Shown: positions 830 to 56,500 of the stretch, one piece after another
Layout of the letters: each line of letters opens with the position of its first letter
How positions within the stretch are numbered: the stretch's first letter is position 1
The notes under the pieces: model-generated
Databases searched by the model: none
What the model saw: only the letters and a program-made list of their open reading frames with translations
Told to the model about the DNA's origin: nothing
Virus record (IMG/VR): IMGVR_UViG_3300045988_160427
Strand: one strand, 5' to 3'
DNA length: 64,000 bases
Origin: a virus
Program-made: the position numbers and the translations under genes

Positions 830-982
830 TTTTTAAATCCTTTCCTATAATTTGAAATAATATTTTATAAATTATTTATTAAACATAGTTTGAAAATTCT
901 TTAATTCGTTCTAAAAACAGTCTAATACGCTCCTTTTAATTTATACTTTTATTAATTTTGTTCTTGTTGATTGGTCTTAAAT

Positions 983-1058
983 GGTGGACCCTCTGGGACT
1001 CGAACCCAGGACAATCCGGTTATGAGCCGGGCACTCTAACCAACTGAGCTAAGGGTCC
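983..1058 (-). tRNA. tRNA-Met (anticodon CAU), elongator-type; could be tRNA-Ile2 if lysidinylated
   Basis: Reverse complement GGACCCUUAGCUCAGUUGGUUAGAGUGCCCGGCUCAUAACCGGAUUGUCCUGGGUUCGAGUCCCAGAGGGUCCACCA folds as a cloverleaf: 7-bp acceptor, D stem GCUC/GAGU, anticodon loop CUCAUAA, 5-nt variable loop, T loop UUCGAGU, encoded CCA. 1:72 is a G-C pair, so not an initiator. Confidence 0.85.
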
Positions 1059-2239: not shown

Positions 2240-2665
2240 TCAATTATTTTTTAATATTTCTAAAGCTTTTAAATATCTTTTTTCCAACTTTTCATTCCTT
2301 TTTTTATTTTGTATTCTTTCAAACACTAAATTGTGTTTAATATCTTCTATTTTTACTTTTCGAGCAATTGGATTAGAACAAATATTTTTTATATATTCAA
2401 AATAAGTATCATGTGTTGATTTCGTTAATAAAACCAATGGCTCTATTACTTCTTTTGGAAAATATCCTTCCAACTCTTCTTTGGATACAAAAGTATCTTC
2501 TAAAACATCGTGCAGGATTGCAACACAAATATCTGTTTCATTATTAAATTTTTCTGCTATGTGATATGGATGAAAAATATATGGAACATTACCTTTATCT
2601 TTTTGACCATGATGTGCCTTGTATGCTATGTTTAAGGCTTTATTTATCATTTTGGTATAAATCAT
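2240..2665 (-). CDS. HD-domain phosphohydrolase
   Basis: KAHHGQKDKGNVPYIFHPYHIA ... LHDVLEDT, the H..HD...D metal-binding pattern of HD superfamily hydrolases. Confidence 0.7.
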   Translation of the reverse strand: MIYTKMINKALNIAYKAHHGQKDKGNVPYIFHPYHIAEKFNNETDICVAILHDVLEDTFVSKEELEGYFPKEVIEPLVLLTKSTHDTYFEYIKNICSNPIARKVKIEDIKHNLVFERIQNKKRNEKLEKRYLKALEILKNN

Positions 2666-2667
2666 AT

Positions 2668-2865
2668 TTACTGTCCTTTCTTTATATCGTCTACCACAGT
2701 CATTAAAGCATGAAAACTTTCATACATATTTTCATAAAGATTGGAAGATTCTTCATTTGCAGCCTTTGGATTTAAAAATGCTTCAACATCTTTTATTCCT
2801 TTTTTAGATAAATAAGAGAAAATATTAATATCGTCAACGGAATTAAATAATGATTTTACTTTCAT
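2668..2865 (-). CDS. hypothetical protein (65 aa)
   Basis: ORF with AAAGGAAG RBS upstream of ATG at 2865. Last gene of the leftward block. Confidence 0.4.
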   Translation of the reverse strand: MKVKSLFNSVDDINIFSYLSKKGIKDVEAFLNPKAANEESSNLYENMYESFHALMTVVDDIKKGQ

Positions 2866-3204
2866 ATGAAACTTCCTTTATAATCATATTTACAAGTTTG
2901 TATAATATAAAGGTAGTTTAAGGTTTCTACGATCTTCAGTTCTTAAAAGTGTTTACTCCCTTAAACTTACCTACAAACGTTTGTATACTTACTATAAAAT
3001 ATAAAATAATAAATGTCAAGCATAATTTAAAAATTTTTTTATAATTATAATAATATAAAGGATTTTATATAAATAATTAGAATATATTAATAAAAAAGAG
3101 TAAAATAATTATTTTAAAATTTGTCCAAACGAATATATAAATATATATAATATATATTATATAATATACACGTCTGTACAAATTTCATATTTTATATATA
3201 ATTT

Positions 3205-3290
3205 AATCATGAATGTAATGAATGATTAAATTATATATAAAATAAAATAAATTAATATTTGAATGTAATGAAAATATTAATTTATTTTCA
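3205..3290. promoter_or_regulatory. two copies of 12-mer GAATGTAATGAA (3211-3222, 3261-3272), each inside a 6-bp inverted-repeat context (AATCAT..ATGATT; TTTGAA..TTCAAA)
   Basis: Seen directly. Located in the 520-bp AT-rich divergent intergenic region. Candidate operator or origin-type sites. Confidence 0.3.
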
Positions 3291-3325
3291 AATATATTAT
3301 ATTATATATTATTATATATTTTCTA

Positions 3326-3354
3326 TTTACAAAATAAAAAACATATGATATAAT
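3326..3354 (+). promoter_or_regulatory. sigma-A-type promoter TTTACA-17 bp-TATAAT with extended -10 TG (TGaTATAAT)
   Basis: TTTACA 3326-3331, 17-bp spacer, TATAAT 3349-3354 with TG at 3346-3347. It is 30 bp upstream of the first plus-strand gene (GGAGG RBS at 3374). Confidence 0.6.
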
Positions 3355-3385
3355 CAAGTAAACAAACAACAAAGGAGGTGCGAAT

Positions 3386-3583
3386 ATGCAGGATCAATGG
3401 ATTGAAATGTCTTATAATAGATATAACAGAGATAAAAATAAAGAAATTTTTAATATAGATTCATATAAATATTATTGCATTCATTATTACGATTTTAAAG
3501 AAGATAATTATGAAGATGATTACAATCCCTTACTAAAAGAAATAACTTATAAAGAGGTGAAACTTTTTCTTGAAAAATATTAA
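3386..3583 (+). CDS. hypothetical protein (65 aa)
   Basis: First ORF after the promoter. Strong RBS AAAGGAGGTG. Confidence 0.4.
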   Translation: MQDQWIEMSYNRYNRDKNKEIFNIDSYKYYCIHYYDFKEDNYEDDYNPLLKEITYKEVKLFLEKY

Positions 3584-6053
3584 TATTTTACAACTACAGG
3601 CCAAAGATGTTGTTTTTAATGATTATAAAGTAAAATCATTGAAAAGATATAGTGCTGTATTTGATTATTCTTTAGAAAGTATAAAAATGGAAGAAATTCA
3701 TCATAAAGTTTTTAGAAATAATAAATTTATTTTTCAAGAGAACGGAAAAAATTATACTAATGACATTATTTCAATTGCCTTTGATTATCGTCATAAGAAT
3801 TATTCCATATTTGAACTTAGAAATAAATTATATAAAGATGGCTTCTATTGTGAGGGGAAACATTATGTTAGATACAAAAGATCAAGTGGAAGTGCCAGAG
3901 TTGGTAAATGTTTATTTATTCGTGAAGAATTATATTATCCAATGATGAAATGGTCTAATATGGGTTTATCTTTCAAGAAAGACAGTGAAGTAGATTTAGC
4001 TTCTATGGAGGCTTATATTGCTTTGACCACGTCAAGTATTATAGGTACTATACAAATTTATCCAGAAAATATTTTATTAATAGATGACTATGAATCAATT
4101 TTCGAAGATGAGGCTGTAGTTGTAGAAGTTGAAAATAATAAACTTCGTGCTAATAATAAAAAAACTATTATTAAAAATTCTATTTGGGATGGTCAAAGTT
4201 TATTAGATGAATCTTTGTTTAATGGTGAATACAAAGATAAAGGAATGCTATTGTTAAGAAATCGTTTCTTCAAATCTTGTTGTTTTAATACAAAAATACA
4301 AAAATTTTTCAAAGATCATAAAATTACTTCAATAAATCAGTTAAAAGGAAAAACAATAGCAAAAGATATTTCTCAAATCAAACTTATAACTACTCCTTCC
4401 AGTATTAAATTTTTAAAATTTGGAACTTATGATAACTTTTTAGAAAGAATGGATTCATTGTTTGGTGTTGTTAAATATGATAAAAAAACACATTTTATGG
4501 AGGGCGAATTAGTACAAACTCATTATCAACTATTGAATACATTAGAATTCACAAGAGAAGACATGGAAAAATTTTTAGAAGATTCTTTTGATTATTTAAA
4601 AAAATTAAAAAGAGATTTAAGTGTATTTAGATATCAATTAAAAATTAAAAATAATATATTAAATAGATTTCAATTACAATCAATGAATGATTTTATATAT
4701 CAAATGTTAATTTTAAATGATGATATTAAAAAAACATCCATGTTTTACAATTTCAAAAAAGAATTTATAAGAGCTTATATTGCCAATATGCGGAAAGGTC
4801 ATATTCTTGTGAATGGTAATTATTCTACGATGATGGGTAATGGGTATGAAATGTTATTAGAATCCATTGGTAAATTTTTAGGAGTAAGTGTGATTGAAAA
4901 AGAGCATGTAATGACTGTAAGATTCCCTTCCGAAAAAGAATTATTAGGAATTAGAAGCCCTCATATAACAATGGGGAATATATGGGTAGTTAAAAACAGA
5001 ATTTATTCAGAATATTTAAAATATTTTAATTTAAGTGAGCAAATTATTTGTGTGAATGCAATAGAAAGTAATTTACAAAATAGATTAAATGGATGCGATT
5101 ATGATAGTGATAGTATTTTAGTAACTGATAATAAAATTTTAGTTGAAAAAGCTAAAATGAACTATGATAAATTTTTAGTTCCAGTACCAAATATACCTTC
5201 TACCAAAATTAAAAGGTATAATAATTATAATCATAAAAATGATTTAGACGACAAAACTTCGGTGAATAAAATAGGGGAAATAGTTAATTATTCTCAAGTA
5301 TTAAATTCTTTTTTATGGGAACTAAAAAAAGAAGGCAAAGATTATAGTAGTGTTTATAATGATATTTGCATATTAGCTGTAATGAGTGGTATAGAAATTG
5401 ATAAAGCTAAAAAAGAATATTCGATTAATAATGAAATGGCATTAAAAGAATTGAAAACTAAATATAAGTATATTATTGATAAAAAACCTATGTTTTTTAG
5501 TTATTTACCAAATAAATTTATTTTATTCGATCAAGAAATTTTATCAAAATGTTATAGAAACTATGAAACCTCTATGGATTATTTAGAAAACTCTATAAAC
5601 AAAAATCAAAAAAAAATTAGAGCGCCTAAAGAAGAAAAAATAACGATTGGTGAATTAGTTAATAATAATGATTACATCATTGAAAGGAAAGATAAAATAA
5701 AAGCTAGGAGAGTAATTAAAGAGTGCGAGATATTAAAAAATAAAAGTGATTTAGTATGGAGCAATCCTACTTTAAGTTCTCAAGAAAAATATTTTACTAC
5801 TTTAGAATTACAAGACGATTTTATTAAGAAAATAAAAAATAAAAAATTAACAAAAGAAGTTATATGTTTTATTCTTAAAAATCTTTCTACTAAAATACAG
5901 AGGAAAATGTTATTTACTCTTTATCAAACGAATCCTCAACAGGTAGAAGATTTATTAATGGATAAAAAGAAAAAAATAGAAATAATAAAAAGAGATGATG
6001 ATGGCGATATTATTTTATATCAAAAAAAGTTTAAAAAAATACAAAAACAATAA
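3570..6053 (+). CDS. large protein of unknown function (827 aa) with ...NGCDYDSDSILV... acidic loop
   Basis: Long uninterrupted ORF at the head of the late operon. DxDxD-type motif DYDSD near residue 505 and GNYSTMMGNGYEML near 420. No Walker motifs seen. Confidence 0.5.
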   Translation: MKNINILQLQAKDVVFNDYKVKSLKRYSAVFDYSLESIKMEEIHHKVFRNNKFIFQENGKNYTNDIISIAFDYRHKNYSIFELRNKLYKDGFYCEGKHYVRYKRSSGSARVGKCLFIREELYYPMMKWSNMGLSFKKDSEVDLASMEAYIALTTSSIIGTIQIYPENILLIDDYESIFEDEAVVVEVENNKLRANNKKTIIKNSIWDGQSLLDESLFNGEYKDKGMLLLRNRFFKSCCFNTKIQKFFKDHKITSINQLKGKTIAKDISQIKLITTPSSIKFLKFGTYDNFLERMDSLFGVVKYDKKTHFMEGELVQTHYQLLNTLEFTREDMEKFLEDSFDYLKKLKRDLSVFRYQLKIKNNILNRFQLQSMNDFIYQMLILNDDIKKTSMFYNFKKEFIRAYIANMRKGHILVNGNYSTMMGNGYEMLLESIGKFLGVSVIEKEHVMTVRFPSEKELLGIRSPHITMGNIWVVKNRIYSEYLKYFNLSEQIICVNAIESNLQNRLNGCDYDSDSILVTDNKILVEKAKMNYDKFLVPVPNIPSTKIKRYNNYNHKNDLDDKTSVNKIGEIVNYSQVLNSFLWELKKEGKDYSSVYNDICILAVMSGIEIDKAKKEYSINNEMALKELKTKYKYIIDKKPMFFSYLPNKFILFDQEILSKCYRNYETSMDYLENSINKNQKKIRAPKEEKITIGELVNNNDYIIERKDKIKARRVIKECEILKNKSDLVWSNPTLSSQEKYFTTLELQDDFIKKIKNKKLTKEVICFILKNLSTKIQRKMLFTLYQTNPQQVEDLLMDKKKKIEIIKRDDDGDIILYQKKFKKIQKQ

Positions 6054-6158
6054 TATTTTTGTGCCATTTAGTACATTTGTTTTCCCTGAAAAAGGATGAA
6101 TTCATCTATATAAAGCATGTTGTCAATAACGGTTATTATAGGAGAGAAAGGAATTATT

Positions 6159-6512
6159 ATGAGAGAATTAAAAAGAGACGAATTAATATCTATGTTATCT
6201 ATAAAAAGTGGCGTTACAAAAAAAGAAACTGAAAAGATTTTAAAATCTTTGGATTTTGTTGTTTATAATTCTATTATTCGTGGTTTTATGGTTAGAATTC
6301 CTGGTATAGGAAAATTTGAACCTAAACCAGTAAAAGAAAGAAAAGAAGCTCGTAATTATGGTGGGAAAGACTTCCTAGGAAATGATATTATTATTCCACC
6401 AACTCCTGCTTTTTGCAGACCTTCTTTTACTTTTGTTAATCAGTTCAAACAAAAAGTAAAAGAAGCAACCACTGGGAGAGTTTATGAAAGAAAGGAAGAT
6501 AAGAATGGCTAG
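6159..6512 (+). CDS. HU/IHF-family DNA-binding protein
   Basis: ELISMLSIKSGVTKKETEKILKSLDFVVYNSI...RIPGIGKFE...RNYGGKDF...IPPTPAFCRPSFTF matches the HU fold pattern (helix-turn, GFGxF arm, proline-containing beta arm). Start placed at the MRELK methionine, which has an AGGAGAGAAAGGA RBS. Confidence 0.7.
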   Translation: MRELKRDELISMLSIKSGVTKKETEKILKSLDFVVYNSIIRGFMVRIPGIGKFEPKPVKERKEARNYGGKDFLGNDIIIPPTPAFCRPSFTFVNQFKQKVKEATTGRVYERKEDKNG

Positions 6513-6948
6513 GCCATTAAGAGAAAAAGAATTATATAGAGCAATTACTAAGCATGCAAAAAGTAATGATATAAGACAAGGAGAGAAATATTATAATGCT
6601 CTGTTTTCTGTTATTGTATCAGAACTATCAGCTGCTGGCGAAATTAATTTGCCCAAAATTGGTAAGTTATTAACCCACAGAACAGGTGGGGAAGAGAAAA
6701 CTTTTAGAAATCCATTAACTGGTGAAACTTTTACTAAATTCGTTGAACCAGGATATTTAATTAGTTTTCAATGTTCTAATCAATTAAAAGAACTAATTAA
6801 TGGGAAAACTAAAAAACCATTGTCCAAAAGTGATCCTAAATATCAAAAGTTGAAAAGAGACATGGAAAAATATAAAGATTTACAAGCACAAACAGATATA
6901 TTAAAAATGTTGGATGAGTTACAAAACGAAGAAAAGGAGGAATCTTAA
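6505..6948 (+). CDS. HU/IHF-family DNA-binding protein, second paralog
   Basis: KELYRAITKHAKSNDIRQGEKYYNALFSVIVSELSAAGEINLPKIGKLLTHRTGGEEKTFRNPLTGETFTKFVEPGYLISF follows the HU pattern. Start set at MARPL to avoid overlap. Confidence 0.7.
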   Translation: MARPLREKELYRAITKHAKSNDIRQGEKYYNALFSVIVSELSAAGEINLPKIGKLLTHRTGGEEKTFRNPLTGETFTKFVEPGYLISFQCSNQLKELINGKTKKPLSKSDPKYQKLKRDMEKYKDLQAQTDILKMLDELQNEEKEES

Positions 6949-6950
6949 TT

Positions 6951-8132
6951 ATGGAGATAAATAATGATTCTTCTATTTTTTCTAAAATTTTTAATTTAAC
7001 TCAGAGTGTAAGAAAAGGCGAAATTACATATGAGGATTATGCTTCTTTATTGGATAGTAATTATTCTATAGATACGTTGCGTAAGTTTTCTTATGTTTTT
7101 TCTGAAATTTTTTCGAATATAGATCAAGAAAATATAGACTTATCTACTGAATTAAAAGATTTAAAAGAAGAAATAATTAAAGAACGACAAAAGCTACAAT
7201 TGGTCAGAACTGATTATAATGCTTCTATTCGTTATGATGCAAGAAAAGAATTATTTAATGAAATGGTTTTAGATTCTATAAATAAATTAAAACCTATCGA
7301 AGTTAAAAAAACCGTCTTTTCTAATAGAACTCCTGAGAAAACAGGAGTTTTGTTTATATCTGATGAACATTATGGGAAAGATTTTAAACTTTATGGAGTT
7401 TATAATGAAGTCGTGAATGAATATTCGCCTAAAATATTTAAAGAAAGAATGTGGAATCTTTTATCAAAAATTAATAATGATATTTTTGATATGGGATATG
7501 AAAAATTAATAGTGTGTGATTTAGGGGATAATATAGAAGGAATTTTAAGAGCTACAAATTCATTGCGTAAATTAACAGTAGGAGTAGTTGATTCAATAAT
7601 AGAATATAGCGAATTTATTTCTATATGGTTGAATGAATTATCTCAACGTTTGGAAATACCAATAGAATATCATTTAAATGGAGGAAACCATGATATTTTA
7701 AGAATATTAAATTCTAAACCTGATTTCGATGAAGAAAATGTAGGTAAATTAATAAATCACTATATAAAATTGAGATTAAAAGATAATAAAAATATTTTAA
7801 TAGGCTCTTATTCTGATATTGGTTGTCATAATTTGTACGGTGTTAATATGTTAACCTATCATGGGGCTGGTAAAGATTTGAGTTCTGAAATCTCTTTCTT
7901 TGAAAATTATTATCAATTAGATATAGATTTATTAGTTTGTGGGCATTTACACACTGAAAAAGAAATAGCTTTAGGAAGTGGATATTTAGGTAACAGATTG
8001 GGTATAGTTTGTCCTTCTATTATGGGCCCAGATGATCATAGTAAAAAAATCAGAAAAACCAGTAGACCCGGGGCTAAATTTATTTTATTTAGCAAGGATG
8101 GAATTGATTTAGAAAAAACATACTATTTATGA
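6951..8132 (+). CDS. calcineurin-like metallophosphoesterase (SbcD/Mre11-like phosphoesterase fold) with N-terminal coiled coil
   Basis: Motifs DEHYG (D-x-H), CDLGDN (GD), GGNHD (GNHD/E), CGHLH (GH). Confidence 0.7.
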   Translation: MEINNDSSIFSKIFNLTQSVRKGEITYEDYASLLDSNYSIDTLRKFSYVFSEIFSNIDQENIDLSTELKDLKEEIIKERQKLQLVRTDYNASIRYDARKELFNEMVLDSINKLKPIEVKKTVFSNRTPEKTGVLFISDEHYGKDFKLYGVYNEVVNEYSPKIFKERMWNLLSKINNDIFDMGYEKLIVCDLGDNIEGILRATNSLRKLTVGVVDSIIEYSEFISIWLNELSQRLEIPIEYHLNGGNHDILRILNSKPDFDEENVGKLINHYIKLRLKDNKNILIGSYSDIGCHNLYGVNMLTYHGAGKDLSSEISFFENYYQLDIDLLVCGHLHTEKEIALGSGYLGNRLGIVCPSIMGPDDHSKKIRKTSRPGAKFILFSKDGIDLEKTYYL

Positions 8133-8157
8133 GAAAAGGGTAAACGGAGGATAAACA

Positions 8158-9048
8158 ATGGCCACAAAAAAGATAAAATTATTAGATAATTATTGTGTTT
8201 ATTGTGGGAGAGAACATGCGGTTGAAGATTTTTATAAATCTTTTAATCCTTATCATACTAGTGGATATATTCCATATTGTAAAGAAAGCGCGAGAAAAAT
8301 TTATGATAATTATTTGGTGAAAACAGGTAATGTTGAATCTGCTTTATGGTATACATGTTCTGAAATTGGAATACCATTTATAACAAAAGTATATAAAGCT
8401 GTATTAGAAAGAGTGAAAAACTTAGGTCCTGGAAAAGATTATAATTATATAGGAATTTATATTACTTTTCTACACAGATTAAAAACTAAAGTGGATAAAT
8501 GGGATACTTTTTATAGAACCGATGTTTCTTTAGACCAAGTATCTAGTGTTTCTAAAAGTGAAGAAGCAATAAACAAAGAAACACAAAGACTGGAATTAGA
8601 TTGGGGAAAACAAACTGTAGAAGATTACCAATTTTTGGAATATAGATGGGATGTATATATGGAACGTTTCAAAGATGTAGAGGTTCCTCCCGCGCAAGAG
8701 ACTTTATATAGACAATTATGTTTGGTTGAATTACGTAAAAGAAAAAAAGAGGAAAAAGAAGAATTAACAGATAAAGAGCAATCTATGATATTAAATTTGA
8801 TGAAAATATTAAAAATAGATAATTTTTCCAATAATGATGAAAAAACATTAGTTGAATCTCTTTTAGAGAGACAAATTTGGGAACAGGAAAATACTGATCC
8901 TTGTGAAATAGTTGATAAAGAAAAATATAGAGATTATTGCGACATAGAAAAAAAATGGGGAAAAAATATTTTAAGAGCTGTAAAAAATTTATTGGTAGGA
9001 AATCGAGAATATCCTTCTATTACAGAGATGGAAGATGAAAAACAATGA
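8158..9048 (+). CDS. hypothetical protein with N-terminal Cys4 (CVYCG...YCKE); position fits a small terminase subunit/DNA-recognition protein
   Basis: Immediately upstream of and overlapping the large terminase start. No recognisable motif beyond the zinc-finger-like cysteines. Confidence 0.3.
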   Translation: MATKKIKLLDNYCVYCGREHAVEDFYKSFNPYHTSGYIPYCKESARKIYDNYLVKTGNVESALWYTCSEIGIPFITKVYKAVLERVKNLGPGKDYNYIGIYITFLHRLKTKVDKWDTFYRTDVSLDQVSSVSKSEEAINKETQRLELDWGKQTVEDYQFLEYRWDVYMERFKDVEVPPAQETLYRQLCLVELRKRKKEEKEELTDKEQSMILNLMKILKIDNFSNNDEKTLVESLLERQIWEQENTDPCEIVDKEKYRDYCDIEKKWGKNILRAVKNLLVGNREYPSITEMEDEKQ

Positions 9049-10292
9049 ATTTAAGTGGGATAATTAATGAAAGATTAAGGAAAAGAAATAAGAAAACTAA
9101 AATTTTATCTGAGCAAGAAAAGAAAGAAAATATTATTAAATGGGCAACATTTTATAGAAGAAATATGAACATATATGCAGAAAGAAGATTGGGTATCAGA
9201 TTGCATCCATTTCAACATATTATGATTTATTTGATGAGTATTAGTCAAACTTTTTTTGCGATTTGTACTCGTGGTATATCTAAAACTTTTATAGTTGGAT
9301 TGTTTGCTGTGTGTGAAAGTATGCTTTACCCATATAGCGAAGTTGTAATTACTGCGACCACGATACCACAAGGTGCGGTTATGGTTAAAAATAAAATAGA
9401 AAACGAAATTGTGAAAAAGCTTTCACCTTTGTTACTGTATTTATATGAAAATAATCAAATAAAATTTTCTTATAATGACAATGAGATTAAAGTTGAATTT
9501 CTTTTTAATGGTTCTATTATTAGAGTGTTGCCGAGCGGAGATCAATCTCGTGGTTATCGTGCTACCGTTTTAATTTATGAAGAATGTAGATTATTAAAGA
9601 AAAATATGGTAGACTCAGTTTTTTCTCCCATGTCGCATCCAAGACAGGCTAAATTTATGACAAGAGAAAAATATGCGGGAGATAAAAGATGGCAAGAAGA
9701 AACTATATCTATTTATATTACATCCGCTAGAATGAAATCAGAGTGGTTTTGGACAACATTCAAAGAAGTTGTCCAAAAATGTTATAATAGCAAAAGGATA
9801 GTTGAAAATTTCTTTGCGGCAGATATTTATACAGCTATTGAATATGGTTTAAAAACGAAAGCTGATTTTGAAAAATCTAAGTCTCAAATGAGTGAACTAG
9901 ATTTTAGAATGGAAATATTAAATGAAATGATAGGGGAAGCAGAAAATGCTTTTTTTACATTAGAAATGTTTCGCAATAATCAGGTTTTAACAGTTCCTTT
10001 TGTTCCTCCTAATGTTAGGGATATATTAGGAGGGGAAGATGATTATATAAAAGAAAAAGCAATTAATGAATATAGGTTGCTTTTTATAGATTTTGCTTTC
10101 GCTAATACGACAACCAATCAAGAAAACGACAATAGCATTTTAGGGTGTATGTCTTTATTTTATAAAAATAAGAAAATTTATAGAAATGTTGATTATATTA
10201 CAACACACCCTGCAAGTGATAGCCCAGGGATGGAGAAAAAAATTAGAGAATTTTATTGGGATTACAATGCTGACTTTATCGTGATGGATTAA
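9045..10292 (+). CDS. terL: terminase large subunit, exon 1 (ATPase domain plus start of nuclease domain); ORF stop at 10290-10292 lies in the intron
   Basis: LHPFQHIMIYLM...AICTRGISKTF is a Walker A-like loop. LLFIDFAFANTTTNQENDNSI is the first Asp motif of a TerL RNaseH-like nuclease. ORF is only 415 aa and is followed by an intron. Confidence 0.8.
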   Translation: MNLSGIINERLRKRNKKTKILSEQEKKENIIKWATFYRRNMNIYAERRLGIRLHPFQHIMIYLMSISQTFFAICTRGISKTFIVGLFAVCESMLYPYSEVVITATTIPQGAVMVKNKIENEIVKKLSPLLLYLYENNQIKFSYNDNEIKVEFLFNGSIIRVLPSGDQSRGYRATVLIYEECRLLKKNMVDSVFSPMSHPRQAKFMTREKYAGDKRWQEETISIYITSARMKSEWFWTTFKEVVQKCYNSKRIVENFFAADIYTAIEYGLKTKADFEKSKSQMSELDFRMEILNEMIGEAENAFFTLEMFRNNQVLTVPFVPPNVRDILGGEDDYIKEKAINEYRLLFIDFAFANTTTNQENDNSILGCMSLFYKNKKIYRNVDYITTHPASDSPGMEKKIREFYWDYNADFIVMD

Positions 10293-11462
10293 TTAAGGTT
10301 CCTTTTTATGGTAACATAAATCGAATAACGCATTTAACTGCTGGAACACCCTTAGAGATTTATAAACTACAACGTGACAGTGAAATAATGTGAGCGTGAA
10401 TGTTAAAAATTATAAATATTGGGCAATCAGCAACCAAGCTCCGAACAGGAGAAGGCTCAACGACTATCGAAAATTCTATATGGAAGAAGTAGAGTACATC
10501 ATAAGCGATTGATGATGGAAACGGTGCGCTTTATTTTTTAATAAAGAAGATATAGTCTAACCTTATGTGAAAGCATAAGAAAAAGTGTAGCGAGCTTTTG
10601 TAATAATAATGTAGTAGTATTGCTTTGAAAAGGTGAGTGATATGAAATTATATGAAATTTTAGATGGAAAGAAAAAGGAGAAATCTTTTTCGTGTATTTA
10701 CATGTGGGAAAATTTATATAATAAGAAAAAATACATTGGACAAACTCAAAATTTTTATACCAGAATGGCACAATATTCATATAAAGGCGGCAATATTTAT
10801 TTGAATCGTGCAATAGAGAAATATGGGATAGATAATTTTGAAATTACTGTATTAGAATATGTATCTAAAGAATATTTAGATGAAAGAGAATAATATTGGC
10901 TAGATTTTTATAAATCTTATTTATTTTTAAATGGGTATAATATATGTCGCTATGCGAGTAGTACGCGCGGATATAAACATACTCAAGAAGTGAAAAATAA
11001 ATTAAGGAAGATGAAAATTGATAACCCAGTTTGTTTATGCGGAGAAAAGAATCCAATGTATGGTAAAAAGCATTCATTAGAATGGAGAAAACAACAGTCT
11101 GAAAAAATTAAAGAAAAATGGGAAAAAGATGAAGAATATAGGAATTTTTGGCACGAAAAAATGACGGGCGAAAATAATTATTTTTATGGAGTTCATTTAA
11201 CAGGTGAAAAAAATCCTATGTTTGGTAAAAAACATTCCGAACAGACGCGAAAAAAGATTTCAGATTCAAAAAAGGGTAAGTTTTATGGGAAAACAGTTAA
11301 AATACAATGTGTAGAAACAGGGAAGATATATATTAGTATTTCCCAAGCATCTAAAGAGTTGAATGTAAATATCAATGCTATATACTCAATACTGGATAAA
11401 CCTAATAGAACTTGTAAAAAATTACATTTCATCAAAGTTTAATATAAATTACTACATTTTCG
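10290..11462 (+). mobile_element. group I intron (IA-like core) interrupting terL, carrying a GIY-YIG homing endonuclease gene in its 3' (P9) extension
   Basis: P4 tgctgg 10339-10344 pairs with cagca 10428-10432. P6-like hairpin at 10439-10451. P7 gactat 10462-10467 pairs with atagtc 10552-10557, inside an S-like AAGATATAGTCTAACC. P9 hairpin cttatg-tgaaag-cataag at 10562-10579. Proposed P1 is exon GGAU with IGS GUUCC (10298-10302); P10 is CUU with AAG. Boundaries are inferred. Confidence 0.65.
10642..11442 (+). pseudogene. GIY-YIG homing endonuclease (I-TevI-like: GIY-YIG domain, NUMOD3 repeats, C-terminal HTH) interrupted by an in-frame TAA at 10891-10893
   Basis: N-part CIYMWENLYNKKKYIGQT...NRAIEKYGIDNFEITVLEYV. 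After the TAA the same frame continues YWLDFYKSYLFLNGYNI...TRGYKHTQEVKNKL, then GEKNPMYGKKHS / GEKNPMFGKKHS (NUMOD3 x2) and IYISISQASKELNVNINAIYSIL (HTH). ORFs 10633..10893 and 10990..11442 are in the same frame (both mod 3 = 1). Confidence 0.7.
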
Positions 11463-12041
11463 CTTCGCAACGGTGGAGAAGTGTTGTATAACAATTTAAC
11501 CAATCTATACAATCATCCCGAAAGAGGGAATGCATGGAACCCTCATGGGTTTACTGTATCGAATGAAATCGGAATACACGTTGTTCCTGACACTAAATTA
11601 GCAGATTTGAGAAGTCGTGCAATAGATAGAGAGGCCATTCCAGCAATTGTTCCGATTATTGGAACATCTGATTTAAATAGTATGATGTGGATGGATTTGC
11701 AGTTGCGATTGCGCAATAAAGAAATAAGATTTTTAGTTGATGAAATGGAGTATCAACAAATTTTAGAAGAAACTTCAAGATACTTTAAAATGACTTCTGA
11801 GCAACGCATAATAGAAAGATTGCCTTATATCCAAACATTACTATTGGTTAATGAAGCAATAAATCTTTCTCCTTCTTGGAAGGATGGAAAAGTTAAATTG
11901 TCTGAGCCGAGAAGTGGAATGAAAGATAGAATTGTGGCATGTTCTTATGGAAATTGGATAGGAACATTATTAGAAAATAAACTTTCAAAGGAAGATAATT
12001 ATGGAGAAATGGATATTTCTCAATATCAATTGGTTTTTTAG
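11463..12041 (+). CDS. terL: terminase large subunit, exon 2 (rest of nuclease domain); exon start is inferred, the ORF is open from 11448
   Basis: Same frame as exon 1 (9045 and 11481 both mod 3 = 0). The candidate 3' splice site 11462|11463 is set by the frame requirement (intron length mod 3 = 0), a G at 11462, and a 3-bp P10 pairing (CUU with AAG). Acidic residues (LVDEMEYQQ) are consistent with a TerL nuclease C-half. Exon 1 + exon 2 is about 608 aa. Confidence 0.6.
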   Translation, partial: LRNGGEVLYNNLTNLYNHPERGNAWNPHGFTVSNEIGIHVVPDTKLADLRSRAIDREAIPAIVPIIGTSDLNSMMWMDLQLRLRNKEIRFLVDEMEYQQILEETSRYFKMTSEQRIIERLPYIQTLLLVNEAINLSPSWKDGKVKLSEPRSGMKDRIVACSYGNWIGTLLENKLSKEDNYGEMDISQYQLVF

Positions 12042-50770: not shown

Positions 50771-52921
50771 TTATTTTTTTAATAATTCATACAAAAAAGT
50801 TTCTCTACAGTCAGTAGCTTCCACTTTTATAGCATTATTGATGGTTTTTACGTCTCCAACTTCCACCAAGAGCTCTTTTGCTCTTGTATTAGCTACGTAT
50901 AATAAATTTTTATTTAATAATTTATTGTGCGAAGGATGAGTAATGTTAATAACACTTAAGAATTCAGAACCTTGTGATTTATGAGTGGAAATGGAATAGC
51001 CCAAAAGAAGATTGTTCATTTCACTATATGTATAAACAATTGAATCATCTTGAAATTTCACAATTAAACATTTGTTTTCCACATCCACTTGTTCCACAAC
51101 TCCCATATCTCCATTTACCACAGTAGCATTACCGAATTTTGCCCCTTTCTCATAATAATCTATATTTGTTACAGCGTTATAATTATTTTTAGTATTGATA
51201 ACTTTATCTCCAACTCTGAATCGCATTTCTATATTACCACGTTTGGTTGAAATTTTTTTTACGATTTCTTCTCCTTTTAATGGGTTACAAATGTTTTGTA
51301 ATTCTGTATTTATAGCATATGTTCCCATTGAACCAACATTAAAAGGGGATAATACTACAATATCATTTTTACTATATTTGGTGAGCAAGTTTTTATATTC
51401 GTTAACAATTTGTTGCAATGGATTGTTTCCTATAGGAATGAATTTATATTCTTTATTTGGTTGATATCCATCAAAAATTGGTCCTTCTTGATTTAAATAT
51501 TCTTTTTTATTTCGAATATCGGTTGCTACTGTTAATAAAGCATTTTCCCCATATCTGAAAATTTTGCTAAGTTTAACCGTTGGTATTTTTTGAGATCGTA
51601 AAATATCTCTTAACACATTACCACAACTAATGGATGGTAATTGTTGCTCATCGCAAACTAATAAAATTTTAGACGAAGTAGAAATATTATTTAATAATTT
51701 AGAAAAAATTTTCACTCCCACAAAAGAAAATTCATCTATAATAACAACATCAGCATCAATATAATTATTTTTAGCAAGTTCTTTGTGTATGGTGCTAGTA
51801 TATCTTTCGGTTACGTCTTTCAATCTTTTGGCTGCAATTCCAGTAGGAGCTAAAAGGATGTAACTTAAAAATTCTGAGTCTAGCATTTCAATGAGTGCTT
51901 TAATAGTTGAAGTTTTACCAGAGCCAGCGGGTCCGCATAAAATCAATACATCTTCATTTAATATTTTTTTAAGAACTTCTTGTTGTTCCTCGCTTAGAAA
52001 AGATTTATACTTTTCATATTGTAAATTTATATTTCTTGGGTTTTCTTTTCTTTCTAATAAATTATTAGCTATATTCCTCTCGGCTTGATAAGTCGACATT
52101 TTAGCAATAAATTTCGTATCGTTTTCATAGAAAAATGTGTCCCGCTCTTCAACTACTTTTTTAATTTTCGGAAAACACTCAGGAATCATTTCCAACGCTA
52201 AGCTAGCTACAACGTTAGCATTTATTTTTGTGTTTCCTTCCGCTTCGTTCATAGTCAATATGTGTAATAAAAGGTACTCTGTTTGAATCTCACTCCCTAA
52301 GAAAGATGGGTTAATTTTTAAAATAGTATTATTAGCACCGATAAAACCTCTTTCTAAAATATCAATTAAAACATGATACGGATTTTTCTCTAATTCTTCA
52401 TAAATTTTATCATAATTATAATATGCTTGGAATAATTTTTTACATTCTTTAAGGGTAAATTTATAATCAGGAAACATATTTATAATTTTTTGATAACGGT
52501 ATACATGATTAATTTTTTCTACATATTCATTAAATCTTCTTTCTCCAACTCCTTTAATTTTATTTAAGTCAATTTCATTTTCTTTCCCGTCTACAATCAT
52601 AGCTACAAAGTTTGGATAAACGCTATGTATGTTGTCTGCTTGTTTTTGATTCATAAATGATAATAAAATAGGAATTTCATCTGCCGCAGTGATTTCTATA
52701 TTGTCTAATGAAGGAACAGTAATTAATTCATATTGGATACCATAACGTGGATGCTCTATTTCTTTTACTACAATTTCATATTCTTGGTTTAATTGTAAAC
52801 ATCCAACGTTTCCAATCACTGTAATAAAACTATCTTCGTCAATATCTTTACAAATTTTCACTCCGTAAGATTCATTTTCAAATAAAACTTTTTGTGGAAC
52901 AACTTTTAATTTAATACTCAT
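50771..52921 (-). CDS. RecD-like SF1 DNA helicase (ATP-dependent exonuclease V alpha-like)
   Basis: Walker A LILCGPAGSGKTSTIKAL, LLAPTGIAAKRL, and DEFSFVG (Walker B-like), characteristic of RecD/Dda-type helicases. Confidence 0.75.
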   Translation of the reverse strand: MSIKLKVVPQKVLFENESYGVKICKDIDEDSFITVIGNVGCLQLNQEYEIVVKEIEHPRYGIQYELITVPSLDNIEITAADEIPILLSFMNQKQADNIHSVYPNFVAMIVDGKENEIDLNKIKGVGERRFNEYVEKINHVYRYQKIINMFPDYKFTLKECKKLFQAYYNYDKIYEELEKNPYHVLIDILERGFIGANNTILKINPSFLGSEIQTEYLLLHILTMNEAEGNTKINANVVASLALEMIPECFPKIKKVVEERDTFFYENDTKFIAKMSTYQAERNIANNLLERKENPRNINLQYEKYKSFLSEEQQEVLKKILNEDVLILCGPAGSGKTSTIKALIEMLDSEFLSYILLAPTGIAAKRLKDVTERYTSTIHKELAKNNYIDADVVIIDEFSFVGVKIFSKLLNNISTSSKILLVCDEQQLPSISCGNVLRDILRSQKIPTVKLSKIFRYGENALLTVATDIRNKKEYLNQEGPIFDGYQPNKEYKFIPIGNNPLQQIVNEYKNLLTKYSKNDIVVLSPFNVGSMGTYAINTELQNICNPLKGEEIVKKISTKRGNIEMRFRVGDKVINTKNNYNAVTNIDYYEKGAKFGNATVVNGDMGVVEQVDVENKCLIVKFQDDSIVYTYSEMNNLLLGYSISTHKSQGSEFLSVINITHPSHNKLLNKNLLYVANTRAKELLVEVGDVKTINNAIKVEATDCRETFLYELLKK

Positions 52922-53075
52922 TTTTTACTCCTTATTAAAACCGTACCTTTTTGATAACATTATATATTTTAATATGAAAATAGTCAAGTTTTAAATGATA
53001 TATTTTCAAAAATAAAATATTTTATTATAAAAGAAGCTCCTTTTTCATAAAGGGCCTCTTTTGTACGTTCCTATA

Positions 53076-53512
53076 TTATTTTAGATTAATTTCGTAATCG
53101 ATCTTTTTTATTTGCGCTTTTTGATTTTCAAACAATTTTTGGCTTTTATTGTTAAACCCCCAAATGGTTGTTTCTATTTTTGTCTTTTTTTTCAACCTAG
53201 CTTCAATTTTAATCATATTAATAAGAAGAGTTCCAATTCCTTTTCTAGCATAATGTTTTGTAATACACATATCTTCTATATATATACTTTCATTTTGCAA
53301 ATAACATAGTATAAAACCAATGAATTTTCCATTCTTTTTAACTTTATATCCAAATCTATTTGTATTTTTCATTAATAGATTAAAACTATATTCTTCTAAT
53401 AGCTTTTTTCTTTTAATGACTCTGGGCAGAAAGTTAAATGATAATCATATTCCTCTTTGAATAAACTTTTCAAACAATTATAATCGTTTGCTGTGATTTT
53501 TGTAATTTCCAA
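53076..53512 (-). pseudogene. GNAT N-acetyltransferase gene split by a frameshift at a 6-nt homopolymer plus TAG
   Basis: N fragment from TTG 53512 to TAG 53396 reads LEITKITANDYNCLKSLFKEEYDYHLTFCPESLKEKSY, a typical GNAT N-terminus. C fragment 53372..53076 has FIGFILCYLQNESIYIEDMCITKHYARKGIG, GNAT motif A. One extra A in the A6 run (plus-strand T6 at 53404-53409) would fuse both into one about 145-aa GNAT. Confidence 0.55.
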
Positions 53513-53514
53513 AA

Positions 53515-56500
53515 TTATACTCCTTTTCTTTCACTTCTTATGATGAGGTCTGCATTATTTGAAACTTTTTCAATTAATAAAACAGTATGTTTGAAGATTG
53601 AGTTTTTATATTTTTTAGCTCTGAAATAATCATTATTTCTATAACCAACAATGCATAGTTTTGTTCCTCTTTTGAACCAACTATCATCTACCATGACTTT
53701 GTGTTCAACATCGCCCTGTGATATTCTTTGCTCATAGTAACTATAAGTTTCATCATTGAATTTTACACTTATTACTTTATTTTGAGGTGTCAAAATTTCT
53801 ATCGTTCTTTTATTTTTATTTTTATCTACCACAGTTCCACAAATTCTATAAAGATCATACTGTTTCCATATAAACTCCTCCCCGTTTCTTTTTTTATAAC
53901 TTTTGATTGCATAGCTTGGGTCTTCTGGAAGCAAATCAAAATTAATAATATTATACTTATCAAAATTAACAGACATTAGTTCATGTTGATCTTTGGGATA
54001 AAAAGACGTGGAAGAAAAAGCCCACTCTAATTCATTATTTTCTTCTATGTTGTTTTCATATAATATTTTCTTACCTATATTATTAAAATTTTTAATAAAA
54101 TCTTCATTGGAAATATATTGTTTTATCTTCTCTGCATAAGGCTTCGTTGCACGATCTAAATTTTTATCAATAATTATCATATAATCATTTTCATAATAAA
54201 AATCCACATCCTCTTTTAAGTTAGGAAACCAGTATAACAAATCAGACTCAACTTTTTTCGGAACCATATAATGTTTTTTTGTTTTTATTTTTTCATCTTG
54301 TTTGTAAAAATTCATTTTATTTTTGATATTTTTACAAAGCATATACGGAGTTAATAAATTTTCTGGTATATAAATATCATATTCCAATATTTTATTAATA
54401 TTTTGCAATGATAATTCTTTTTTTTCTTCATATTCTAATGAAAAAAATTCTTTCATTATTTCAATTCTGTTTTCATTGAATTCATCAAAACAACCAGCCT
54501 TTATTAATGTAATTATTTTTTGCTTCTTAATTAGCGATTCTTTATTATTTTTAATTTTGTTATAAAAATCTATAAAAGAATCATAAGGTCTATTATTAAC
54601 TATTTCTCTAGCTACTTCGTTGCTAATTCCAGAAATACCACCTAATCCAAAAAGAATACTATTATCTTCTCTGTTTGGCGTGAAAGAAATGTTTGATTTA
54701 TTAATTGATGGTGGTAAAATATTTATTCCATGATGTTTCATTTTATAAATACTTCGCGCCATTTTTCCATAGTCAATAGCTGTCCTTTTATCTTTTTCAT
54801 CGTCTGATTGACTTTCCACAGTTAAACAGGCACAATTCCAATAAACGGGCGGGTAATAATAATTCAAATTCAATTCTTGCAAAGCAATGATCGAATAAGA
54901 TGCCGAATGTATTTGAGAAAAAGAATAGCCAAAACTTGCAGCAAAAATTACATTCCAAATATACTCTAAAAACAATTTTCTGGTTCCTAGTTTTTCACCA
55001 TATTCAAAAAATTGTTTTTTCGCTTCTTCTTGTAATTGTGCACTTTTTTTCGCAATACTTTTTCTAAGTTTATTACTTTCTTTTAAAGTATACCCGCTTA
55101 CTCTTTTGTCCATGCTAATACGCATTAATTTTTCTTGGCTATCTGCTAAACCATAAGAATCATTTAAGTACTCTTTTAAACAAGCTTGCTCATTTTCATT
55201 CAACCCATAACTTGTCATTTCTTCATACCAATCATTTATATTTTGTTTAAATCTTGCATATTTTAACAATGGAGACTCTTGACCTGGTTGTGCCATTAAT
55301 CTAAGCAAATTGTTAGTAGCAGATAAATCCATAACGCTGTGAGGTTGTGTAAGGTTTAAAGCACGCTCACTTATTTTGGTATCAAATTGAAACACACTAT
55401 AAATATTTTTAATTATATCCCACATATTTTTATCATCATATTCTAAAATATCAGGATGAATATATTTTTCGTATGTTTTTTTCAGTGTTCCTTGCCACTC
55501 TATAATTCCATCTTTTAATAATAGATTTAGTGTCGTATGAATTTTATCTGTGGCTATGGTTTTTAACAAATCAAACTTAATTTCTCCACAGTATTCAGAG
55601 TCTATTAAATCGTAACAAGAACATAATTCTCCTTTAGGGGAACGCATAGAAGCAATATAGTTAGTATATGAGTCATTACCAACTAAAATACCAGCAGCAT
55701 GTGTACTTCTTCCTGTAATCAAACCTTCTAAAGAAAGAGCACATTCTTTCAAATTAGGATATTTTTCTACTTCACGAATAAAACTTTGGATAGGTTGCCT
55801 TTGTTTCTCTACGTTGCCCTCGAGACAATCTCGCAAACTCCAAGTAAAACCTCTTTCTACTGGTATCATTGATTTAATATAATCTGCCACATCGTTGTTA
55901 ATACCAAGCCCTTTGCAGCTTTTTTCTATGGCAGTTTTACTCGTTAGCGCAGAAAAAGTTGCTATACTTAAAACTCTGTCTTCACCAAAATATTCAACTA
56001 CCCCTTGGATGATTTCATTCTTCTTAGATGATTCTGAATCTGTATCTATATCTGGTAATTCTACACCTCTATCTATATTCATAAATCTCCAAAAAGGCAT
56101 ATATTCTCCGAAAGGAACTGGGTCTATTTGAGTAATGTCTAGTAAATAACAAGACAGACATGCGCCGGCACTTCCTCTACCTGGCATTACTAAACTTCCA
56201 GCTTCCCATATGATATCTATAATTTTTGACATAGAACTGAAATAACAGGGAATAGATGTTCCCAATTCTTCACTTATTAAATGAAATTGTTCAAATTCTT
56301 CATCTAGTCTAGCAATATATTTTTCCAAATTTTCTTTTTTGGAATTAGTACAAATTTTTTCTTTTATTCCTTTTTCAACTTGGTAGAAAAAATATTGTTC
56401 ATGCAATGTTCTTTGGGGATTAGCATAATAGGCAAAATTATTATATTTAGAATAATAATTGCTAAAAGTATGCTCTATTTTAAAATTGGGTAATTTATTT

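Follow-up and report, generated by a model that had tools for sequence, protein, structure and literature searches.

Intron-borne GIY-YIG homing endonucleases, introns in phage terminase genes, and the loss of endonuclease function are all already established. The locus described here lies in a 64,000-nucleotide stretch of viral DNA (IMG/VR record IMGVR_UViG_3300045988_160427), which as a whole is called the window. Its source is a tailed phage of the human gut that has a genome of approximately 85 kb and is related to phages of Enterocloster. In the window, the gene for the large subunit of terminase (TerL) is split by a group I intron carrying an I-TevI-like GIY-YIG endonuclease gene, which is itself broken by an in-frame TAA. 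The reading that we favor, with a probability of about 0.87, is that this is a recent null allele of an intron-borne endonuclease in an ongoing homing cycle, and that neither recoding nor an enzyme designed in two parts is involved.

The td intron of phage T4 begins with UAAUU and so has an in-frame stop at its start, as does the intron of the window, and the td open reading frame (ORF) lies in an internal loop, whereas that of the window lies 3′ of the core matched by Rfam. In both systems, a GIY-YIG nuclease is joined to a NUMOD3/helix-turn-helix region and is encoded in a phage group I intron, and a short stretch of high identity between lineages runs into the flanking exons, consistent with co-conversion (PMC2988022). 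The host genes differ, being TerL in the window and thymidylate synthase in td; in addition, the window's protein resembles I-TevI only distantly (E about 3e-5), a search upstream of its gene revealed no operator-like site, and the window copy contains a nonsense codon. The nrdB intron of T4, likewise of group I, has been retained although its endonuclease gene, that of I-TevIII, is dead; the relative RB3 keeps a functional ortholog, and the dead element is mobilisable in trans (PMC2988022). I-TevIII, however, is an HNH enzyme killed by a large deletion, whereas the GIY-YIG gene of the window was broken by one base change and its lineage has intact and variously broken alleles co-circulating in near-identical phages.

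TerL genes with endonuclease-carrying group I introns, sometimes several, occur in Bastillevirinae and other phages, where splicing has been demonstrated experimentally (PMC11878797). The Bastillevirinae are Bacillus phages whose TerL introns carried VSR-like “HNH” endonucleases, in contrast to the I-TevI-like enzyme of the Enterocloster-related gut phage studied here. The Enterocloster phage CB457P1 (OP172753.1) has an I-TevI-like gene, ITEVIR, at the same codon position of TerL (after ...VLD and before LRNGGEV), with a homologous ribozyme upstream, but its product, annotated as “intron-associated endonuclease 1,” is intact (257 residues) and only 44% identical to that of the window. The TerL of CB457P1 (L001, 3430-6881) also differs in being in three pieces, annotated as hypothetical, with a second interruption upstream, near codon 190 (between ...ARGE and RAT...).

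The Premature Stop Lies within the Nuclease Domain

A reading of the window made from the letters and ORF translations alone, without database searches (the sequence-only reading), had pointed out that ORFs 10633-10893 and 10990-11442 share a frame, and translation of 10633-11442 indeed finds the TAA at 10891-10893 as the sole interruption. The same reading recognized an I-TevI-like protein with a GIY-YIG domain, two NUMOD3 repeats, and a C-terminal helix-turn-helix, and profile searches return the first two of these. With the stop masked, Pfam identifies GIY-YIG (PF01541) over residues 17-100 of the read-through protein, spanning the stop, at 35.2 bits against a cutoff of 22.6, and the two NUMOD3 repeats at 69 bits; residues 187-243 show a weak alignment to 1I3J, the DNA-binding domain of I-TevI (E = 0.0017), and PHROGs label both endonuclease pieces “homing endonuclease.”

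The stop had been placed in the conserved linker between the two domains, and this proved to be incorrect. In an alignment with the catalytic domain of I-TevI (1LN0/1MK0), the sequence ERE-Q-YW...NGYNI of the window corresponds to ERE-N-FW...NGYNI, so that Arg41, Glu83, and the NGYN motif of the read-through protein align with Arg27, Glu75, and Asn90 of I-TevI, and codon 84 aligns with Asn76, immediately after the catalytic Glu75. It should be noted that 1MK0 reads ERA at the catalytic site and is presumably the E75A mutant. The alignment therefore puts codon 84 directly after the catalytic Glu, inside the nuclease domain, and the product ending there lacks about 17 residues of the 92-residue module, among them the conserved Asn (PMC2988022).

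The translation start is likely to be ATG 10642, which is preceded by AAAGGTGA, and not GTG 10633, because the homologs all open with MKLYE or MKIWE, matching this ATG, and because gene callers choose it on other contigs. The proposal that a nuclease domain of 86 residues is severed from its DNA-binding domain stands as regards the severing, whereas the domain is neither complete nor of that length, having 83 residues when counted from ATG 10642.

Comparison with a 99%-identical intact allele (contig L003, protein P0001) reduces the lesion to one CAA to TAA transition in Gln codon 84. L003 and the window differ at 7 positions in about 960 nucleotides, one of them being the C versus T at 10891, and, codon 84 apart, the read-through protein differs from P0001 at only three residues. 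P0001 (266 residues, 99% identical to the read-through protein) represents a cluster of 140 members and reads EREQYW; Gln occupies the position of codon 84 in every homolog examined (REQYW), and intact alleles with 93-99% DNA identity have CAA there. The comparison with the closest homologs that the sequence-only reading recommended therefore yields a sense codon (CAA, Gln) in intact alleles and no naturally split homologs. A single uninterrupted ORF for nuclease and DNA-binding region is absent from the window but present in P0001/L003 and in about 17 related contigs, and the window, judged from its sequence, holds a null allele of a member of the I-TevI-like family and not a functional member.

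That the true codon is CAA and the TAA a sequencing or assembly error is the least probable of the explanations considered. The difference is a single base, and three assemblies (L009, L174, and L176) break at or near the stop, suggesting that both alleles are present in some samples. Exact copies of the 83- and 143-residue pieces are, however, on record from JGI, ENA, Logan, and NCBI (DAP42752.1 and DAP42711.1). One contig with the stop (L005) is the window's own source contig (JGI sample 3300007043), but the TAA recurs, on two haplotypes, in six or more further metagenome assemblies: over 5-6 kb, L006, L007, and L008 do not differ from the window, whereas L010, L011, and L012 differ at 3-4 downstream sites. 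It was assembled independently from ERZ1033698, ERZ1033685, SRR1952058, ERR11570775, ERZ27242317, and ERZ28618257 with different assemblers, and it is a substitution and not an error of homopolymer length. Its presence in other samples and on two haplotypes excludes a one-off error.

Neither Readthrough nor a Two-piece Enzyme Is Supported

In programmed readthrough, decoding of the TAA at low frequency would supply a little full-length endonuclease. The frame downstream of the stop is fully open, with only the three further residue differences from P0001, which speaks for recoding, but the youth of the allele explains the open frame. Conservation argues against recoding: the stop is absent from the near-identical intact alleles and from all homologs examined, and the frameshift and deletion alleles described below are beyond rescue by readthrough. 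TAA closes 43 of the 62 long ORFs of the window, and the context TAA-T is ordinary, being the commonest among those 43 stops (19 cases). The only tRNA in the window is a tRNA-Met (anticodon CAT; 982-1058, minus strand), so that no suppressor tRNA was found there, in a search that spanned 64 kb of the approximately 85-kb genome. Readthrough is consequently regarded as very improbable. The use of TAA as the main stop codon and the lack of a suppressor tRNA in the window also dispose of a genome-wide reassignment of this codon, in agreement with the sequence-only reading, which had thought it unlikely.

An enzyme naturally made of two proteins, also proposed earlier, was rejected. Of the 120 best homologs, almost all are single proteins, 209-285 residues long, that cover 91-100% of the query, the sole exception being P0006 (73% coverage), a frameshifted allele; two-piece versions appear only inside the cluster of >90% identity, with break points that differ. 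Moreover, the first piece is an incomplete nuclease domain, and the signals for restarting translation appear poor and are unchanged from those of intact alleles. Two internal starts can be considered for the second piece. GTG 10990, the start first suggested, has no Shine-Dalgarno sequence (duplex −0.7 kcal/mol), and gene callers instead use ATG 11011, which gives a product of 143 residues. The latter is directly abutted by a Shine-Dalgarno-like AAGGAAG (−6.1 kcal/mol), but the same sequence is present in intact alleles.

A Group I Intron Splits the Terminase Gene

The group I intron that splits TerL around the endonuclease gene was missed by the sequence-only reading. The flanking ORFs, 9045-10292 and 11481-12041, match one PHROG at successive profile positions, and the ORF annotated from GTG 11481 is an artefact created by this split. 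When 10200-11650 (1.45 kb) was scanned permissively with Rfam, RF00028 matched at 10281-10579 with 58.2 bits, above its gathering score of 50 (E = 7.7e-14 for that stretch). Scans of the whole window, both in gathering and in E-value mode, miss the intron because of their speed filters. Introns elsewhere in the window could escape in the same way; a rescan of the gaps 2500-3700 and 52700-53700 found no further introns in these two.

Joining U10289 to C11463 removes 1173 nucleotides and produces a stop-free ORF of 607 residues that reads ...DFIVMD/LRNGGEV... across the junction and is colinear with the uninterrupted 632-residue TerL of the Enterocloster phage PMBT24, which has no intron. A close intron-less allele, L232, encodes a TerL that is 89% identical and continuous over the junction, with 30 identical residues. 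P1 is formed by GGAU 10286-10289 with GUUC 10298-10301, so that the U10289·G10298 wobble falls at the 5′ splice site. A possible P10 between exon CUU 11463-11465 and AAG 10295-10297 is visible in the sequence itself; a splice register shifted by +1 would give an intron ending in C. The in-frame TAA at 10290-10292, which forms the first three bases of the intron, terminates translation of exon 1, and for this reason exon 1 resembles a complete ORF of 415 residues.

L232 is identical to the window for 45 nucleotides upstream of the insertion site, whereas its first two exon 2 codons are TTG AGA in place of the synonymous CTT CGC of intron-bearing alleles. Possible causes of this difference are co-conversion from the donor, a requirement of P10 (CUU with AAG), or a target that resists cleavage.

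When seven diverged ribozyme copies, including two from a different host gene (L205 and L207), were compared with RNAalifold, 33 of 72 pairs had changes on both sides that retain pairing. In L180, for example, G10567-C10574 is replaced by A-U and A10533-U10542 by G-C. Between the start of the intron and the endonuclease ATG lie 352 nucleotides (10290-10641), for which nearly every allele shows 99.4-100% identity; the most diverged lineage shows 96.3%, and its changes include compensatory pairs. The covariation, the intron-less alleles, and the exact junction together indicate that the intron is real and that its fold is under selection. From the conservation of structure and the exact in-frame junction, the intron is predicted to be self-splicing and to permit production of full-length terminase. 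No promoter or terminator inside the intron scored above chance, and blastn and tblastn found no other copies of the intron or endonuclease gene in the window. The coordinates of the locus are collected in Table 1.

Table 1. Features of the interrupted TerL locus in the window
Feature	Coordinates	Strand	Remarks
TerL exon 1	9045..10289	+	415 codons, ends ...DFIVMD; last exon base U10289; PHROG terminase-related matches; aligns with uninterrupted TerL of PMBT24 and L232
Group I intron	10290..11462	+	1173 nucleotides; starts with in-frame TAA 10290-10292, ends in terminal G11462; Rfam RF00028
Ribozyme core	10281..10579	+	Rfam group I intron model matched end to end (positions 1-253), P1 included
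I-TevI-like GIY-YIG/NUMOD3 homing endonuclease gene	10642..11442	+	266 codons plus stop; 3′ of Rfam-matched core; broken at codon 84
Translatable 83-residue product	10642..10890	+	GIY-YIG domain minus last ~17 residues, including conserved Asn of NGYNI motif
Premature stop TAA (Q84*)	10891..10893	+	Single C>T at 10891 relative to CAA of intact alleles
Untranslated rest of endonuclease gene	10894..11439	+	End of nuclease domain, linker, two NUMOD3 repeats, C-terminal DNA-binding region
Intron 3′ tail	11443..11462	+	Ends in terminal G; 95-100% identical in all alleles covering it
TerL exon 2	11463..12041	+	Begins LRNGGEVLYNNL

Intact, Broken, and Empty Alleles Circulate Together

Contigs were sampled through exact TerL exon products, a procedure that is blind to the state of the endonuclease gene, and this gave about 17 contigs with an intact 266-residue gene, about 4 with the TAA, and about 3 with other lesions. 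An IMG/VR sample drawn by core sequence, equally blind to gene state, contained only five contigs, all already known. Lesions were counted only where they are internal to a contig. Short N-terminal “fragments” in the protein cluster were considered as evidence of stops and rejected, several of them (L009, L174, L176, and L179) being merely contig ends, and these four were left out of the count.

Besides Q84* in the window and its group, the independent lesions are Q34* (L180-183), E77* together with −A at 11207 (L204), Y85* (L173/L198), W86* (L175), a 17-nucleotide deletion at 10863 (L177/L178), +T at 10751 with −A at 11207 (L004), a 121-nucleotide deletion from 11152 (L017), and +2 nucleotides at 11325 (L193); additional frameshifted proteins are known only as members of the protein cluster. 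The one-base deletion in the A7 run at 11201-11207 recurs in at least three otherwise different alleles (L004, L204, and P0126), and it could mark a homopolymer hotspot or a shared ancestral lesion spread by recombination.

Between allele lineages, the nuclease and DNA-binding halves of the endonuclease gene each have a ratio of nonsynonymous to synonymous substitution rates (dN/dS) of about 0.1, compared with 0.07 for TerL. This shows that the gene is under purifying selection and that the null alleles are recent and lie at the tips. An old pseudogene is ruled out by this ratio together with the small number of differences (7) from the intact allele. Of the suggestion that the TAA is a nonsense mutation in a degenerating homing endonuclease gene, the first part is borne out by the CAA of the intact alleles, whereas “degenerating” needs qualification in view of the dN/dS and of relatives that are mostly intact.

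In the comparison with L004, identity is 98-99.4% over the intron and endonuclease gene but about 80% in the distal exons, and the high identity extends about 45 nucleotides upstream and about 180 nucleotides downstream of the intron. A pattern of this kind is expected when an intron has homed recently and its flanks were co-converted (PMC2988022). Target alleles without the intron exist in L232 and PMBT24. The presence of intact, broken, and empty alleles side by side is what the asynchronous model of the homing cycle predicts (PMC1654191).

The positions of the lesions raise the question of whether nuclease-dead alleles are selected and not merely tolerated. Q84*, Y85*, and W86* are independent stops at consecutive codons, with E77* and the 17-nucleotide deletion a few codons upstream, and in simulations the clustering at codons 84-86 has p about 0.006 when the whole ORF is considered and 0.03 when only codons 1-100 are, in a post hoc test on which the way of finding the alleles had some influence. 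If the knockouts were selected, stops after the catalytic Glu would disarm a costly or toxic endonuclease and might leave a DNA-binding fragment, the separately translated 143-residue protein from ATG 11011, as a repressor or as a blocker of target sites against homing by competitors. The Shine-Dalgarno-like motif at ATG 11011 would allow its synthesis, and the DNA-binding domain of I-TevI acts alone as an autorepressor (PMC2988022). However, that motif is identical in intact alleles and is therefore not an adaptation, and a search upstream of the endonuclease gene for an autorepressor-type operator resembling the homing site scored no better than shuffled sequences (7 against a mean of 6.7). 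Ascertainment is biased for the alleles at codons 85 and 86, which came to light through a protein cluster centred on an 84-residue fragment; other lesions lie along the gene (codons 34 and 37, the 121-nucleotide deletion, the A-run at 11207, and the insertion at 11325), several of them, in L004, L017, L193, and L204, wreck the C-terminal part as well, and intact alleles predominate. Selected knockouts are thus considered unlikely, if less so than readthrough.

Phage Surroundings and Related Elements

The nearest isolates are Enterocloster phages of about 100 kb. A 43-nucleotide core pattern, used to look for a host through a prophage copy, had no match in GTDB genomes.

Two contigs, L205 and L207, contain homologs of the endonuclease (56-62% identical) and a homologous ribozyme inside another split gene (178 or 135 residues, followed by 193 residues), with more GIY-YIG/NUMOD3 ORFs close by. 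The lineage of this endonuclease and its intron has therefore invaded at least one host gene besides TerL. In the related phage of contig L009 (1404-2651; exon 1 about 88% identical), TerL exon 1 is called as ORFs of 208 and 186 residues, 60 nucleotides apart; a further lesion, a small insertion, or an error of assembly could account for this split.

Upstream of TerL (about 3400-9044 in the window, compared with L004, L005, and L002), the genes appear SPbeta-like and include proteins with YonG_N and YonJ_CC domains and two HU-like DNA-binding proteins. A protein of about 814 residues, also upstream of TerL, is annotated in PMBT24 as “RNA-dependent RNA polymerase,” and we suspect it to be a candidate RNA polymerase of the YonO type.

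DISCUSSION

The sequence of events best supported by these comparisons begins with a C to T transition that converted Gln codon 84 (CAA) to TAA one residue past the catalytic Glu. Translation would then stop after 83 residues, giving a fragment whose nuclease fold is incomplete and which lacks the DNA-binding domain, and the endonuclease is predicted to be dead in the genome of the window. The ribozyme is untouched, and splicing of the intron and production of full-length terminase are for that reason expected to continue, so that the knockout probably costs the phage little or nothing. Q84* is one of many independent null alleles circulating with a majority of intact copies and with intron-less targets, and would represent the phase of decay in an asynchronous homing cycle that is still running. 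Judging from I-TevIII in T4 nrdB, the dead copy could persist and spread in trans by means of the intact endonuclease of a co-infecting relative.

Several points weigh against this interpretation or restrict its form. The stops at codons 84, 85, and 86 are, in the post hoc test, more clustered than simple neutral loss predicts. The simplest form of the homing cycle, decay after fixation, does not apply because null alleles are in the minority and the gene is under purifying selection; nor is the intron fixed, since L232 and PMBT24 lack it. The occurrence of the TAA on two haplotypes needs recombination or recurrent mutation. Both the inactivity of the 83-residue fragment and the splicing of the intron are inferred from sequence, and the tRNA search covered the 64 kb of the window.

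The intron and endonuclease lineage in Enterocloster-related gut phages appears to be undescribed. The finding bears on annotation, since in this phage group the terminase is annotated as unrelated “hypothetical” ORFs, two or three in number, with the endonuclease likewise divided into two proteins, and default Rfam scans of whole contigs overlook the intron. For the biology of these phages, the locus offers a natural snapshot of the homing cycle in the human gut, in which intact, empty, and variously broken alleles occur in near-identical genomes; it fits the idea of an asynchronous homing cycle and could serve in population-level work on selfish elements of the gut virome.

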